From Paecilomyces variotii (taxonomy: Eukaryota), in assembly GCA_004022145.1 (NCBI GenBank), contig RCNU01000003.1: 64,000 nt of DNA; one strand, written 5' to 3'. The notes beneath the pieces are model-generated. The model saw only the letters and a program-made list of their open reading frames with translations, searched no databases and was not told where the DNA came from. This document shows, one piece after another, positions 2,260 through 28,642 of this stretch (its first letter is position 1; the number at the start of each line of letters is the position of its first letter). The position numbers and the translations under genes are program-made.

Positions 2260-5185
2260 TTAGCTTTCCTCCTCGTCCTGGGCCCCTACAGTGAATTTCT
2301 TTCGGCCCGTTCCAGTAAGCTTTTGGATCCTGACCCTGTCCACCTGCTCCCCCACCTTTTTCTCGATCTTTTGGATCTCCGCCTCGGGATCGACAGCCTC
2401 CTCGGACGCGAACTCCAGGACTAAGCGCCTGCCAAGAAGATGCGTGTTCTTCAACGCGTCCATAGCGTTTTCTGCTTCGCGAGCACTGACAAAATCAGCG
2501 AACGCGAAACCACGAGCACTGTGGTCGAACTTCTTGGGAACCCGCACAGAGCGCAGCTGTCCGTACGCTCCAAAGAGCGATCTGACATCCTTTTTCGTTG
2601 CCTGGAACGGCAGGTTCTTAATGATAATCTTCGTCCTGCGTGCCGCAATCTTCTTTGCAGTGTCTTCGCGTCTCCGCTCTTCCGCAGCATCCATGCCCTT
2701 GTGAGATGCTTTGATGACGAGCTCATGCTGATCTAGCTTATAGCCATTCATAGCAGCCAGTGCTGCTTGGGCTTGCGCACTAGTCCTAAACTCGACAAAG
2801 CCGAATCCCATGCTGAGAGTCTGGCCAGGGCGTTTCGGGTCAGGTTTGGTTTTGACCTTAGCGGATAAGAAGCCATCCAATGGTTGGAATACTTCGGTTA
2901 ACCGCGCATTGGTCGTTGCGAAGTTCAAGTTGCGTACGAAGAGGGTTGATGTCAGAAGTTGATCCTGAGTATCCTCTGCCGCAAATGTATCGGCCGTTGA
3001 GAAGCCTTGAGACACAGCCTTCGCCTCCAGCACTGACTGCTGCGGAGCGGACGTGCTATCAAAGAGATCTTTAGGCGCTCGCTCCAGGAACAGGATTGAA
3101 TCTCCCAACTTGCGATACGCAAGACCTTTGAAGGCTTTTTGGGCTTCATCTGGTTGTGAAAATTCCACAATTGCTATAGTGCCACTGGGGGGCATTAGCA
3201 GCCTAGTGAGCTGACCATACTGTTCAAATAGCTTTCTCAGATCGGCCGCCTTGACTCCGAAGGAGAAATTCTTTACGAGTATGGCGGTGTTCCCACGCTC
3301 TTTTTGCTTGAAAGCATCGAGGTTGACCCCATTAGAAGAGAAGTACGCCTTGGTCTCCTGGATCACATGAGTCTCCGCATGAGCCTGCTTGATCGCAGCG
3401 TCCGCAGAGGTCGGATCCAGAAGCTCGGCTTTGGAGACTCCAAGTCTCTCCGCCACGGAAGACATAACAGCATCGGTCTGCTTTCAGTCAGCGCGGGCCT
3501 TTTGCTGACCAGGATTTACCACTGCAACTTACGTTCATATAGAGAGAGTTCCAACTAAACGTCGATGAAGAAGCTTCCATTTTCCGTTTTATCTGTTTTT
3601 GTTTCTTCAAGGGTAACTTGGATAGTTCATATTCATCTATCTTATACGTCTTCTTCGCAGAGGCTGGGAGAATATGAAGCAATCGGCCTTGGAAGGTTTT
3701 CCCGTCCAAAGCTTTATAGGCATCGATGGCCGAGGAAGCATCGACATATTGCACGTAAGCGAATCCTTTACTTGACGTGGAGCGCGTATCGAATGCGACA
3801 TGTATCTAGATAAGTTAGCAGTTGTCTCAAAACTGCATAAAGAAAATTCTTTCAGAAAGTTCAGGAGCTCTTCAGATATAAAGAAGCATCTACTAAATAC
3901 CCTTTCCTGGTCACATCAAGTGCTTTGCATCAGATGTCCCTATCAGGATGATCATCACGAGAGCGTCCGATCTTTCCTCGTTTATAAGAGGATAGAAAGT
4001 GTTGATTTGTGTTATAGAAGAAAAAGTCACTCACCTCTTCAGTTTTTCCAAACGGCGAAAAAATGGGGTCGAGATCTGCTTCCGTCGCATCGTACGGCAA
4101 ATTCCGTACAAACAAGCGAGCAGAATTATTGATAAGCTCAATGTTGGCATCATTTTCTTCCTGCTTCGCTGCCACATCTGCATCTGCATCCGCATTCGCT
4201 GTGGGGATCGGAGTCGTTTTATCGAGTGCAACTCCCCCCGACTGAGGACCATCGTCATCGTCATCGTCATCCTCCACTGGTTCGAAGCGACTCGAAGGCA
4301 CAGCTGTGTCATGCTCTGCTTGCTCCTCCTCATCAAGGAGCCCGAGCAAACGGCTTGTCTTCGATCGAAGCCAGTCAGCATCTGATTTGGGCTCGGTCTC
4401 CGCAGGCACGTCATCTGCCATGTCCTCGTCTGCTTCACCATCGGCTGTGCGATTAGAAGCTGGCTCCGAGACGACAGCATGTTGTACGTGTTCCTGGACA
4501 GGCGCTTTATGTTCGCTAGGTACTGCAGTCTCAACCTTGGTCTTCTTCCTCTGGGCCTGACCCACATCCTCGACAGGCTGCTCGACACCTACAGACTGTC
4601 CATTGGCGTTGACTGATGTAAGCGTTTCAGCTATAATATCATCATTCGCCCACGTTCTCTTCTTAGTGTTTTGAGTGAGAGATAGATATTCCTGTAATTT
4701 AGTATCTTCCTGGGTGTTATTCTCATCACGTTTGCGCTTGAGCGAATTGGCAGCAAGAGATTCATCCGGCTTTGATCTTTTCTTAGCCTTCTCAGCCGCC
4801 GCCTGGGCGGTCTGAGTATTATCTGATTTAACCTATAGATGTACTGGTCAGTTTCAGGACCACTTAAGACTGGTCAGCCTCGACAACGGTCAAGAAAAGG
4901 GGAAAAATAAATAATAGAAATTTTTGCGACATTGTAAAGCGGACAGCGAACACTTACTGGACGAGCAATCTCTACTGAGATCTTGGACATCCTTATGAAT
5001 GTTCTATTAAAGTAATCAGCGGCTTGCTTTGCCGCCTCAGCATTTTTGAAGCCCACAAAGCCGATCCTGCGCTTTGGAATGACATGAGCATCAGTCACAG
5101 TGAACCGGCTGGAAAAGTGCTTCCCCAAATCCTCATTGGAGAGGGTTGGTGGAAGACCAGAGACGAACACTCTCGTGTTCTCCAT
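2260..5185 (-). CDS. MRD1: Multiple RRM-domain pre-rRNA processing protein Mrd1/RBM19
   Basis: ATG at 5185 (MENTRVFVSGLP). Five RRM segments with RNP motifs (RIGFVGF, RLFVRNLPY, ILVKNF, MGFGFVEF, RGFAFADF). Introns at about 4957-4833, 4032-3807 and 3533-3478. Stop at 2260. Confidence 0.93.
3867..3964 (-). ncRNA. Intronic box C/D snoRNA, snR64/SNORD74-like (predicted guide for the 25S rRNA Cm equivalent to yeast C2337)
   Basis: Minus strand: terminal stem GCTCT/AGAGC, box C GTGATGA (3958-3952), guide GATAGGGACA (3944-3935), box D' CTGA (3933-3930), C'-like TTGATG, box D CTGA (3875-3872). It lies in the unusually long (about 226 nt) second MRD1 intron. Confidence 0.85.
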
Positions 5186-25500: not shown

Positions 25501-26294
25501 GCAAACAATAGGATCAACAGGTCGATATATTTCCGCGGTTTTGACTGAGGCGCCTTATTACCAAGGCCTCACGAGATGCCCTCGTGACTACTTACTTCCC
25601 TTTTAGGAATTTAACTATCATCTCCGAAACTACTCCAGCTGAAGATGATATTATCATTGACTGGCTTTCCACGGGAGATAAACTGTCATTCCTGTTTCTC
25701 TGTTCCGATGCGGATTATCGCCCAAAGGCCACGATCATTCACTGTTGCTCCAGCGTCATTTACTGGAGATAGGACTTACTATTGCCACCAAACCATAGTT
25801 GAGTACCTTCCGAAGCGCTGTGGCGGCTATTCGAAAATTCGTCCTAATTCCACCGCAATAGCTCATATACTTCTTTCTGCTCAGTAACTTGACCACTCCA
25901 CAGTCTCTGGAATATCTGAAAAGGACGTGTTATTTGGCCTTGTTACATAGCCATTAAGAGCACAGATCCCGTCTTGAGATAAACTGCTGTTTGTTCAACT
26001 TCAAATCTAATACCCGACATCATAAGCCTCATAATTGACACTGCTCGGAAAGCCCCCAATAATTTAAACGAAACACGAAGAATCAAAGCAGCCAGAGGTT
26101 TAGATAGGTACTTACTAGGTAACCAGTATCTGTTGAACAGAGGATATCGATAAATCATCGCCCCATCATATCTCCCACAACGGAAGGCGGTCTAAAGTGG
26201 CAAAATCAGGCAAACCCCATCCCCATCCCACATCATAAATATCAACCCACTTTTTCCGCTTTCTTTCTTTCTTTTCTTCTCTTTCTTTCTCTTC

Positions 26295-26717
26295 AAGCGT
26301 CGTCCTCGTCAATGCTGCGTTTCTTTGCTACACACAACAGGTCGAGAGTATATATATATACTCTCCCTGTTCTCCAAACCATGCAAATGAGAAATTCGGA
26401 GGAATCTTCAAAAAGCACTCGTTAATCCGCTCGTTTCTTTTTTCTTTCCTTGGGAAGAAATAGATTCGAGCCGGTACTGCCCGTGAGGGCCTGGCGTGAA
26501 TTACGTCTGCAATAGGCATCAGAAACATCGGGGGAGGGGGGAATGGCGTTTCGTCGTTCTTTTCCCATGGGAGAGCCGTTGCGAAGATTGTGTGTGTGGT
26601 GGTTCTTGGACCCTGCATGACACTTTAGTGCAATACGCAGCATGCCTTGCTCCTCTGGCTTTTGGGCTGGAGGAGCGGTATCATTCGATTCCGATTATTC
26701 TGACGAGGACGACGCTT
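26295..26717 (+). ncRNA. RPR1: Nuclear RNase P RNA (RPR1 homologue)
   Basis: P1: 17-bp perfect inverted repeat, 26295-26311 with 26701-26717. P2: ATGCTGCGT (26312) with ACGCAGCAT (26635). CR-I GAGAAATTCGGAGGAA (26389) pairs in P4 with CR-V ATTCGATTCCGATTA (26683). Also CR-II ATCAGAAA, CR-III ATGGGA, CR-IV AGTGCAAT, a P19-like hairpin GCTCCTC...GAGGAGC, and T-runs just downstream. Confidence 0.92.
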
Positions 26718-27583
26718 CATTTTTCTTTTTTTTCAGGTTAGTCTTTTTTTTTTACCCTCCTGGTGTTTTGACCCTGAGTTACGGGGGGAGGGCGATGGAA
26801 AGGAACGTCTTTTTTTTAATAAGGATACTGCTAATTTGTGATCCGGATTGGGTGACTCGGATGTCTCTGTATTTAGATGATGGAAGTGTGTGGCAAAGGG
26901 ATTGTTGTCCTGATGTATGGACGTGAGACTCATATGCTTAGCATGTGCTGTCGATTATTGTACTCGGATATCATGGCATGGTGGCAACCTGGCTGGGAGG
27001 AACAATACTCTCGATATTGTCTGGGTAGGGATAGTCGGCTGGATATTTCTGGCCCGACTTTCCTGTATGCTAGATGCTAGCTATCAATGGGATTTTTCAT
27101 CCATCCTCCATATGAGTGTGTTCAGCGTAAATTCAGATCGGCTGTAGATGGTCTACGTCGTTTCACTGTAAGGAGTACTACATCGGACTTCCGGTTGATT
27201 GTTAAACGGTAACAGTTCGCTTCATTGGGAAATAGATTGTTATTGCAGATAGATATAAGACAATAACAAAAATTAAAATCGCTTGATGCACTTAAACCAC
27301 TGAATGGTTCAATGATCCCGGGAATATCATGGCATATTTTCATTCCGATTCATGCTCACTTGTCCGCAGACAAGCAACGCCTGCGCCGCCCCCTAGCATC
27401 CGCCTTACCCTGGCCAGTATCCAGGATATCGACTGCTCGGCAAGAAAAAAAATGAAAGGTGCATCTGCTGGTTCCTTCCATATTGATAACTGGCAACGGT
27501 TTATTATCTGCTTGTTGTTATTTCTTTTTTTTCTTTCCCTTCTTGGATTGTTTTCAGATATTTGGTCTTTGATGTGATCATGT

Positions 27584-28642
27584 TTACTCGTCATCTCCGA
27601 TCTATGATGTGGAAATGAAAGGTTAGTCATCTTGCGTGTAGGCAGTGAAGAGATGCACAAAACATACCTTAGGAGCAAGGAAGAAGCGCAGATGACCGCT
27701 TCCCAGTCCGTACTCGACCAGGAGGGGAACCTCCTGGGAAAGGCAGAGCTTCACCTTGCTGGACAGGTTGGTGGCCTTGGTGAAGTTGACAAGATATTTG
27801 AGAGAGAAGGTAAGGGCAACAGGCTCGGAGAGAGAGATGGTGACGTTCTGATCTGGCTTCTCGACATTCGAGTGCTGACGGATAGTCACAGAGCCGTTAC
27901 CGATATCACCCTGGCAGGAGAATCGTACACCTTCTTTCGTGGTCTCGATAACAACTACAGTTCGTCTGTTAGCAACCGTCAAGACACGACAAAAGTCAAT
28001 GCGCAAACATGTGACAGGTGCTGTGAGGAGCATAAGGTCGGCTCACCTGACTCAGACAGAGCGTTAAGATCTCTGCAGATACGCTGGAACTCTGCGGATG
28101 GCATCTCAACCGTAGAGGCGTAGTCTGTGTCAGGAATAGCCAGGTGGTCCTGGTCAATGTCCATAAGTTTGATGTCGTACTCGCTAATTCGGTCGGTCTC
28201 TGCGCTCTCGAACAACAAGTTGACAACATCAGGTGAGTCCTCCGCCTTCAGCGTCAAGATATCCTCGTTCTGTGCGGCACGGAGGACCTTCGTCAGGGAA
28301 ACCAAGTTAATTCCCAGAGCGATGTTACGGTCACAGCGGTACGGCGAGAAGCCCTCCGCCTTCAGCATCATGGACACCAGGGCAACGTGAGAGTTGTCCA
28401 TGGCCTGAAGGGCGATACCGGAGTCATTGCAGTCGAAGTTGCAGTCCTGCACGAGATCCTTGATCGCGTCGACAACCTGCATAATGGAGAGTCGTAAGCA
28501 TGCTGGACCAAAAGCTGTTAAGGCAAAAAGAGAGTTTCGCATACCTTCTTCAGCAGACTTGCCTGCTCTAGCCGTGCTTCCAACACTATTGTGTATCAGT
28601 TGTCTCCGTTGCTATCACGAATCGGGGAGAGGGATGCCTACT
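27584..28642 (-). CDS. POL30: Proliferating cell nuclear antigen; start codon split by an intron
   Basis: A|TG then [47 protein letters not shown]...[16 protein letters not shown]...[14 protein letters not shown]. Confidence 0.96.

Follow-up and report, generated by a model that had tools for sequence, protein, structure and literature searches.

A 64,000-nucleotide (nt) stretch of Paecilomyces variotii DNA, taken from contig RCNU01000003.1 (assembly GCA_004022145.1) and called the window throughout, carries on its plus strand, at positions 26295-26717, a gene that almost certainly encodes the RNA of nuclear ribonuclease P (RNase P), the ribozyme by which precursor transfer RNAs (pre-tRNAs) lose their 5′ leader. 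Behind the gene stand a U-rich tail, a putative 5′ splice site and a putative extended branch site, and further downstream the PCNA gene is read from the opposite strand. An earlier note, made from the letters of the window alone, had proposed that the locus encodes RNase P RNA, an interpretation that is supported by our analysis, also through 42 distinct homologues and their covariation; the splice-signal module is an addition to what that note described. Here we present the gene and its relatives, and weigh how the RNA may be transcribed and how its 3′ end may be formed.

The gene and its match to the RNase P family

A default Rfam run on the whole window reported no RNase P at the gathering cut-off. 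With permissive filters, the RNaseP_nuc model (RF00009), whose gathering score of 28 bits is a cut-off for annotation and not a structural feature, matched 26391-26693 on the plus strand at 23.1 bits, with an E-value of 1.2e-4 on 1.2 kilobases (kb) and of 6.7e-3 on the whole window. The covariance-model check suggested in the earlier note thus returned the expected family, at a score under the gathering threshold. It was the only significant Rfam match at the locus and included the P4 pseudoknot, with CGGAG paired to UUCCG, and its alignment runs from conserved region (CR) I, GAAAUUCGGAG, over two short hairpins, a P10/11 stem with a CAGAAA...UGGGAGA loop and AGUGCAAU to CR-V, AUUCCG, bearing out both the pseudoknot and the order of conserved regions given earlier. 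The shortfall in score coincides with large insertions relative to the model, which are the expansions in P3, the P7-P8 interval and P12, and because 23.1 bits lies under the gathering score, routine annotation would miss the gene.

The whole 423-nt stretch folds at -178.4 kcal/mol. Dinucleotide shuffles average -130.0 (standard deviation 5.9), which gives z = -8.19, and none of 100 was as stable; P1 and P2, together with the AT-capped and 3′ hairpins, already form when the fold is unconstrained. Three open reading frames (ORFs) that overlap the gene, 26328-26618 and 26422-26643 on the minus strand and 26642-26926 on the plus strand, match no Pfam family, in line with their having been called spurious.

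Architecture of the RNA

The RNA has the standard eukaryotic layout, P1-P2-P3, CR-I/P4, P7, P8, P9, P10/11, P12, a hairpin at the eP15 position, CR-IV, eP19 and CR-V/P4, and its expansions in P3, in the P7-P8 interval and in P12 are lineage-specific (Table 1). Both terminal helices were as first described, a 17-bp P1 and, directly inside it, P2, each with arms that are 100% complementary; a 17-nt pair of this kind is expected by chance about 1e-5 times in 600 nt (an arithmetic estimate). The tip of P3, GAGAGTATATA/TATATACTCTC, is a perfect palindrome at 26344-26365 over an (AT)n repeat (arms 26344-26354 and 26355-26365, 100% complementary), set within a longer imperfect stem at 26336-26371, so that the microsatellite-closed hairpin of the earlier description is recovered, and the same hairpin appears in the unconstrained fold. 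Cleavage of pre-tRNA 5′ ends and assembly with Pop/Rpp proteins are presumed from the identity of the RNA.

Table 1. Features at the RNase P RNA locus, in order along the plus strand of the window
Feature	Position	Strand	Description and basis
Pyrimidine (CT)-rich tract	26256..26294	+	Runs to the RNA 5′ end; possible core promoter or start-site region
Nuclear RNase P RNA gene	26295..26717	+	423 nt from P1 to P1; helices, fold, Rfam, covariation
P1, 5′ strand	26295..26311	+	Pairs with 26701-26717; 17-nt perfect inverted repeat
P2, 5′ strand	26312..26320	+	Pairs with 26635-26643; 9-nt perfect repeat
P3	26324..26387	+	Proximal stem 26324-26328 / 26383-26387 around variable distal hairpin 26338-26369
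CR-I and P4 5′ strand, GAGAAATTCGGAG	26389..26401	+	Rfam alignment; bulged U at 26396
P7, 5′ strand	26403..26409	+	Pairs with 26583-26589; Rfam alignment
Expansion hairpin P7-P8	26410..26478	+	62-nt insertion in the Rfam alignment; z = -4.13 in the window
P8- and P9-position hairpins	26479..26507	+	GCCC-GUGA-GGGC at 26479-26490, second at 26493-26507; align to the model's two hairpins
P10/11 with CR-II/CR-III	26509..26582	+	Stem 26509-26517 / 26575-26582; Rfam alignment
CR-II, ATCAGAAA	26518..26525	+	Inside P10/11
Variable P12	26526..26566	+	Between CR-II and CR-III
CR-III, ATGGGAGA	26567..26574	+	Inside P10/11
eP15-position hairpin	26590..26623	+	Base of the helix covaries
CR-IV block, AGTGCAAT	26627..26634	+	Matches the Rfam consensus AGUgCAAU
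P2, 3′ strand	26635..26643	+	Perfect repeat and covariation
eP19 hairpin	26644..26679	+	12-bp stem 26649-26660 / 26665-26676; unconstrained fold
CR-V and P4 3′ strand, ATTCGATTCCGATTA	26683..26697	+	Rfam alignment
P1, 3′ strand	26701..26717	+	Perfect repeat and covariation
U-rich 3′ tail	26718..26736	+	T5 at 26720-26724, T8 at 26726-26733; ends in CAG
Putative 5′ splice site, GTTAGT	26737..26742	+	Window reads CATTTTTCTTTTTTTTCAG, then GTTAGT; CAG before
Putative extended branch site, AAGGATACTGCTAAT	26821..26835	+	Branch A at 26834
First YAG after the branch A	26874..26876	+	42 nt away; position unconserved
PCNA gene	27623..28542	-	Two ORF pieces, intron near 28046..27955; convergent neighbour

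Homologues and covariation

Homologues were drawn from metagenome contigs with a search pattern that consisted of the CR-IV and CR-V blocks only, and each locus was delimited by seeking the best 5′ partner for its 3′ tail. The scan yielded at least 117 stretches; 47 loci passed, 42 of them distinct once five exact duplicates had been removed, and the other 70 of the 117, being too short, mis-delimited or unrelated, stayed outside the analysis. The 47 loci, 358-522 nt long, share a P1 of 12-18 bp and have GAAATTCGGAG at 82-140 nt from the 5′ end. The 423 nt measured for the gene in the window (the length estimated before) fall inside that range of lengths, and none of these properties was set by the pattern. 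P2 is likewise present although only CR-IV and CR-V had been fixed, the presence of CR-IV being a matter of construction. The distinct homologues, at least 42 in number, are 64-76% identical to the window, and an alignment of 43 sequences (A1: the window plus 42 homologues) shows all conserved positions intact in the window. When 20 homologues were compared with RNaseP_nuc, 16 matched: 13 reached the gathering score over model positions 1-301 (29.4-56.7 bits) and three fell under it (24.7-26.8 bits), while four had no match at E <= 0.01. The nearest relative of the window among the matches listed, L029, scored 29.4 bits.

RNAalifold predicted 59 pairs for A1, 39 of them with compensatory double changes; two of its proposals were dropped, a hairpin inside CR-V (columns 588-597), which is invariant and competes with P4, and an extension of P3 into CR-I (columns 30-33 with 158-161), which never varies. 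We then scored the full RNase P topology of 71 pairs in 11 helices, with P4 as a pseudoknot. Standard pairs occupied 95.1% of cells; column shuffles reached 86.7%, and sliding the partners by 1-3 columns left 34-45%. Both sides had changed in 43 of the 71 pairs, against 20.1 in shuffles and 11-17 after sliding; 0 of 500 shuffles reached the observed value on any of five measures. Covariation was seen in 9 of the 11 helices, with changes on both sides in 13 of 17 pairs in P1, 5 of 9 in P2, 3 of 5 in the proximal stem of P3 (where 99.1% of cells are paired), 4 of 4 and 5 of 5 at the P8 and P9 positions, 5 of 8 in P10/11 (helices 8 and 9), 3 of 4 at the base of the eP15-position helix and 4 of 4 at the base of eP19. 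P7 varies little and is paired in 88.7% of cells. All 8 pairs of P4 are formed in 43/43 sequences, an invariance because of which this set says nothing on P4, and CR-I is invariant in all 43 as well, though it lay outside the search pattern.

The insert that forms the distal part of P3 ranges from 40 to 98 nt and tends to fold more stably than expected (median z -2.46; z < -1 in 40 of 43), most visibly in the window (z = -6.94). In L029 the insert pairs a (CT)n with a (GA)n run into a long stem with z = -10.2. Together with the (AT)n tip of the window, this suggests that P3 expansions are built on microsatellites and that repeat slippage feeds the growth of the helix.

Two loci stand out at the edges of this collection. 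L104 (minus strand, 659 nt) is AT-rich, has CR-I and CR-V of the yeast type and a T13 run behind P1, and lacks an AG/GT junction; it was picked up by the alternative form of CR-V that the pattern also admitted, and scores 25.6 bits against RNaseP_nuc, its 5′ end being lost at the locus boundary. It reads GGGAAATTCGGTG ... CGATACCGATTA in comparison with ...CGGAG ... CGATTCCGATTA in the window, so that the A-U pair of the window is a U-A pair there, the reciprocal of the A-for-U exchange in CR-I, compensated in CR-V, by which the earlier note had set this gene apart from yeast. L104 is an arrangement of the RNA polymerase III (Pol III) type, and a useful outgroup for the splice-signal module. 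The second locus, L059, holds an RNase P RNA gene (L059:327-770) about 120 nt behind the 3′ end of a large-subunit ribosomal RNA (L059:1-208, 77.2 bits), and ends in T18.

That the locus encodes RNase MRP or some other structured RNA, or that it is a pseudogene or matches by chance, seems to us very improbable. RNase P and RNase MRP share P1-P4 and CR-I/CR-V, so these parts would fit either, and a score under the gathering threshold would also suit a stray match. The CR-II/CR-III loop with P10/11-P12, absent in MRP, is however present here and keeps A224, A227-A231 and G281 invariant across the 43 sequences, and Rfam reported no MRP match for the window or for 20 homologous loci, which was the counter-evidence that the earlier note had named; the invariant loop and the comparison of models together exclude MRP. 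Covariation over nine helices, the intact conserved positions and contigs from RNA libraries that lie on the gene likewise speak against a pseudogene or a coincidence. Some observations detract from the identification and should be read with it: the match of the window stops at 23.1 of the required 28 bits and aligns model positions 67-285 only; the homologues are interrelated and were found with a pattern that fixed CR-IV and CR-V; P4 never varies within the set; and the Rfam searches for RNase P and MRP on this DNA covered the 64-kb window, so that a second genomic copy is possible.

Splice-like signals behind the gene

The U-rich tail that follows P1 could be a terminator for Pol III or, in front of a splice site, a pyrimidine-rich site of the Sm/Lsm-like kind. 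At positions -12 to -5 before the GT of the putative 5′ splice site, T is found in 24-37 of 42 sequences, and the six loci in which no run reaches four T still carry a splice site. The splice site itself recurs at a nearly constant place. An AGGTNNG stands 31-41 nt after CCGATTA in 36/43 loci, compared with 78 of 3421 control windows of equal size from the same loci (2.3%); in six of the other seven loci a GT-type site differs in the dinucleotide before it or in its fifth base, and L059 alone is without one. Put differently, a GTNNGN site lies 13-23 nt past the end of P1 in 42/43. At the positions left free by the pattern, A at -2 and G at -1 each occur in 39/42, A at +3 in 27/42 and T at +5 in 28/42, and GTCAGT is the second commonest hexamer (6/42).

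The second signal is a branch site of unusual length. The 10-mer TACTRCTAAY was counted on both strands of the 43 loci (117,050 nt), where about 0.45 occurrences are expected by chance; 34 were found, and 33 of these stand behind the 5′ splice site, one in each of 33/43 loci. Nine more loci have a weaker YNCTRAY. GGATAC directly precedes the branch core in 31-39 of 42 sequences, and this GGAUAC extension may pair with U2. In most loci the branch block lies 28-47 nt downstream from the GT; in the window the distance is 89 nt. The flanks carry at most 0.3 bits, leaving two conserved islands, the 5′ splice site and the branch block, amid unconserved sequence. The branch site in the PCNA intron, a single comparison from the same genome, lies 14 nt from its TAG and is without the GGATACT extension.

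A 3′ splice site at the usual distance is missing. YAG occurs 9-17 nt after the branch A in 0/42 loci, against a shuffle mean of 9.9 (0 of 2000 shuffles as low), and the depletion holds for 39 cluster representatives. RAG is found in this interval in 12 loci, and when the interval is widened to 9-25 nt, YAG is found in 10/42, with 16.8 expected. From the branch A to the first YAG the median is 35 nt and the range 18-232 nt. Sequence past the module is unconserved, 39 clusters being formed from 42 loci. The genes that follow differ too: among 49 downstream ORFs of at least 95 amino acids (aa), taken from 221 of at least 55 aa in flanks of up to 700 nt, where introns could hide genes, five match Pfam, all on the opposite strand, namely DUF2237 (two loci) and 2OG-Fe(II) oxygenase (three). 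As the neighbours vary (PCNA, DUF2237, 2OG oxygenase) while the module stays, no conserved downstream gene that could own the signals was found in these flanks.

As a feature of the sequence, the combination of a U-tract with a putative 5′ splice site, an extended branch site and the avoidance of a proximal 3′ splice site is strongly supported. One way to read it is as the head of an ordinary intron, in a Pol II precursor that is fully spliced, so that RNase P RNA would be exon 1 of a non-coding transcript and be freed later by other nucleases. A YAG does stand 18-60 nt after the branch A in 29/42 loci, and the same alternative was raised, before testing, for two fission-yeast telomerase RNAs, as portions of Kannan 2015 (PMC4299874) relate. 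We nevertheless consider it improbable, given that the distance to the first YAG is unconstrained, that YAG is depleted where it would usually lie, that the sequence past the module is unconserved, and that L011 and L053 each have a convergent coding gene whose beginning lies only about 100 nt behind the RNA.

Sequence upstream of the RNA

Upstream counts were made on the 37 loci that have 100 nt of upstream sequence. Pyrimidine content is about 0.5 at -100 to -51 and climbs to 0.74, 0.87 and 0.93 in the last three 10-nt bins, and the RNA begins at a C/AAG junction in 25/42 loci, with NAG at +1 to +3 in 35/42. This CT-rich run-up to a C/A junction resembles, as we presume, the Pol II start regions of filamentous fungi. 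A TATA element at fixed short distance, the upstream signal of Pol III genes of the type-3 or fission-yeast kind, was not found, a strict TATA occurring in only 5/37 loci at -42 to -50 (the window has only ATAAATA at -60), and no tRNA-like element was found, the A and B boxes that mark a budding-yeast leader not having been formally scanned.

A pyrimidine tract ending in NAG could also be a 3′ splice site, which would make the RNA an internal exon or place it in an intron of a host gene. The last 10 nt are 93% pyrimidine and NAG follows in most loci, as such a model predicts, and portions of two papers describe insect and crustacean RNase P RNAs (RPRs) as intronic (PMC4287351, PMC6797745). The branch motif that should accompany the acceptor is lacking: CTRAY 10-55 nt upstream was seen in 2/37 loci, below the background of 11.7%, in contrast to 30/37 in the equal window behind the 5′ splice site, and on this count we rejected the internal-exon model. 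The AAG, moreover, pairs with CUU in P1, and no same-strand coding ORF was found downstream within flanks of up to 700 nt. We give such a host-gene arrangement hardly any chance.

A TGASTC/GASTCA motif was noticed between -100 and -20 in 14/37 loci, often at -56 to -61, against 31/430 control windows; it is absent from the window. The GASTCA motif resembles an AP-1/Gcn4-type site, which, we assume, would be a site for a Pol II factor.

RNA-library contigs

Contigs from public runs cover parts of the gene. X8 is a true metatranscriptome, and X10, X13 and X14 are runs guessed to be RNA. X8 contigs lie on 26383-26596, on 26568-26702 and from 26567 to beyond 27100, and contigs without any difference from the window span 26314-26573 (X10), 26316-26540 (X13) and 26566-26753 (X14). 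The transcript that the earlier note asked for is therefore represented in part, by contigs over sections of the gene from which strand, ends and level are unreadable. Positions 25900-26309 are uncovered in all four runs; contig gaps are no evidence, and they were not used to place the 5′ end. The X14 contig crosses T5, T8, the 5′ splice site and T10. An X10 piece at 26716-26753, with 7 differences in 38 nt of T-run, was ignored as a low-complexity match.

The diverged relatives in these runs vary in the manner of a structured RNA. In eP19 the X8 variants T26656C, G26657A, C26659T and A26671G each keep a standard pair, the pair partners 26649 and 26676 are both deleted, and two more changes fall in the loop, while the distal part of the eP15-position hairpin has many changes and indels in a divergent relative. 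CR-IV, the 3′ strand of P2 and CR-V are unchanged in the diverged X8 relatives (two pieces). The 5′ splice site and the branch block are unchanged in X8 and X14 relatives despite differences at several nearby positions.

One X8 record, a 5149-nt contig of a close relative with 10 substitutions and 12 gaps, joins the 3′ third of the RNA to the PCNA side. It could represent a long 3′ untranslated region of PCNA that runs antisense into the RNA gene, an RNase P precursor made by read-through, or DNA present in the library.

Transcription and 3′-end formation

Transcription by Pol II, with the 3′ end formed by the spliceosome, is probably the simplest explanation of the module. A polymerase able to read through T-runs, most likely Pol II, would start in the TATA-poor, CT-rich region. 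In the resulting precursor the U-rich tract would be followed, 13-23 nt behind P1, by a 5′ splice site and then by a strong extended branch site, with no 3′ splice site nearby. The spliceosome would perform its first step only, cutting at the 5′ splice site and thereby freeing RNase P RNA as the 5′ exon, after which the short U-rich tail would be trimmed or protected.

A conventional Pol III gene that ends in T5/T8, with the 5′ splice site and branch motifs belonging elsewhere or acting as DNA, is the strongest competitor, though an unlikely one. The RPRs analysed from yeast to human are, according to portions of PMC4287351, Pol III transcripts; T-runs stand directly behind P1 in most loci; and L104 (T13) and L059 (T18) have a T-run without splice signals. 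Sequence past a terminator would be untranscribed, yet it is there that the spacing of the 5′ splice site (42/43) and the branch 10-mer are conserved. With T5 and T8 before the 5′ splice site, and T10 and T8 between it and the branch site, Pol III could not transcribe the conserved branch site of the window. The loci that lack a run of four T keep their splice site, strict TATA is confined to 5/37 loci, no conserved downstream gene is at hand to own the signals, and a complementary DNA (cDNA) contig, X14, crosses three T-runs.

Taken as a whole, RNase P RNA identity plus this biogenesis is an explanation that we hold with moderate confidence, and several facts temper it. Runs of at least four T within 30 nt, look-alikes of a Pol III terminator, occur in 37/43 loci and runs of at least five in 32/43. 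The expression data are contigs from public runs, which carry no readable strand, ends or level; the sole contig over the T-runs has a depth of 7.4, and its plus-strand reading depends on a loose end that we take to be a cDNA template-switch adapter. The polymerase, the cleavage and the mature ends are, finally, inferred from the DNA letters.

Comparison with known systems and significance

Yeast RPR1 and human H1 (RF00009) have the same order of helices and conserved regions, a P4 with a bulged U and the CR-II/CR-III loop of the specificity domain. The window differs from them in its (AT)n-capped P3 hairpin, the 69-nt P7-P8 hairpin and the P12 expansion, as well as in having no fixed upstream TATA and in the conserved splice signals after the U-tract.

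Cleavage by the spliceosome at the 3′ end is known for telomerase RNA, in portions of two papers, from TER1 of Schizosaccharomyces pombe, other fission yeasts, Aspergillus and Neurospora (PMC4299874, PMC10003056). In the part of Kannan 2015 that bears on this (PMC4299874), splicing is limited to the first step either by a strong branch site with a long distance to the 3′ splice site or by a GUCAGU 5′ splice site; the rare GUCAGU is that of two other fission yeasts, and Aspergillus telomerase RNA has an AU-type 5′ splice site behind a pyrimidine-rich, Sm-like motif. A text search of the same article did not find "RNase P". The arrangement reported here has the same layout: a pyrimidine- or U-rich tract is followed by a 5′ splice site immediately behind the mature domain and by a strong branch site, the 3′ splice site is distant or missing, and some loci have a GUCAGU-type site. 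It differs in that the RNA is RNase P RNA, that the site is a canonical GU and not the AU form of Aspergillus, and that it is known from sequence alone. Given the strong branch site and the distant 3′ splice site, the closest parallel is S. pombe.

For RPR, a departure from Pol III has a single stated precedent, that of arthropods. In insects and crustaceans, according to portions of Manivannan 2015 (PMC4287351) and Palsule 2019 (PMC6797745), the RPR is intronic and Pol II-dependent, a lineage-wide departure like the one considered here; there, however, a protein-coding recipient gene houses it in an intron, and its release does not depend on splicing, whereas the RNA of the window stands upstream of the splice signals in the place of a 5′ exon, and no host gene was found. 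A third setting is that of some basidiomycetes, whose RNase P RNA genes are placed in intergenic spacer 1 (IGS1) of the ribosomal DNA (rDNA) in portions of a MycoKeys 2022 article (PMC9849065); L059, behind its ribosomal RNA, shares this setting, and the gene of the window lies away from rDNA.

We found no description of splice signals behind a fungal RNase P RNA gene in the full-text articles searched, which lack most subscription journals, and a prior description is possible. Our tentative preference, by a narrow balance, is that a large fungal group, comprising the host of the window and most of the environmental relatives found, has given up Pol III for Pol II in the transcription of its RNase P RNA and forms the 3′ end by first-step-only splicing; the module would then join a 14-nt extended branch site to a canonical GU 5′ splice site and actively avoid nearby 3′ splice sites.

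The gene itself is an expected housekeeping RNA and an ordinary new member of a known family. Since the standard Rfam threshold misses it, the fungal lineage probably has no RNase P RNA annotated, and a better model could be built starting from the alignment of 43 sequences. Should the proposed biogenesis be true, RNase P RNA would be the second class of non-coding RNA, after telomerase RNA, to be matured in this way, and spliceosomal 3′-end formation would be a more general route for stable fungal non-coding RNAs. It would also mark a second, independent escape of the ribozyme from Pol III, beside that of insects and crustaceans, make an essential tRNA-processing ribozyme depend on Pol II and the spliceosome for its supply, and provide more than 40 natural sequence variants for asking what stops the second splicing step.

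Neighbouring gene and other observations

The PCNA gene that the earlier note used as a landmark is real and adjacent (Pfam PCNA_N 8.8e-49, PCNA_C 3.4e-36), with its stop at about 27623, 906 nt from the 3′ end of the RNA; it lies on the minus strand, so that the two genes converge and the RNA gene is not simply a feature downstream of PCNA in the same direction. The PCNA frame continues upstream of the listed ORF, at about 28545-28600 on the minus strand, and then reads GTATGC, with no in-frame ATG seen there; a further small intron may divide the start codon, or the codon may lie on its far side. Elsewhere in the window, a C/D-box small nucleolar RNA of the Aspergillus fumigatus family Afu_335 at 3870-3962 on the minus strand (94.9 bits against a gathering score of 50), which gives the best hint of an Aspergillus-like ascomycete as host, was the sole Rfam match above threshold.

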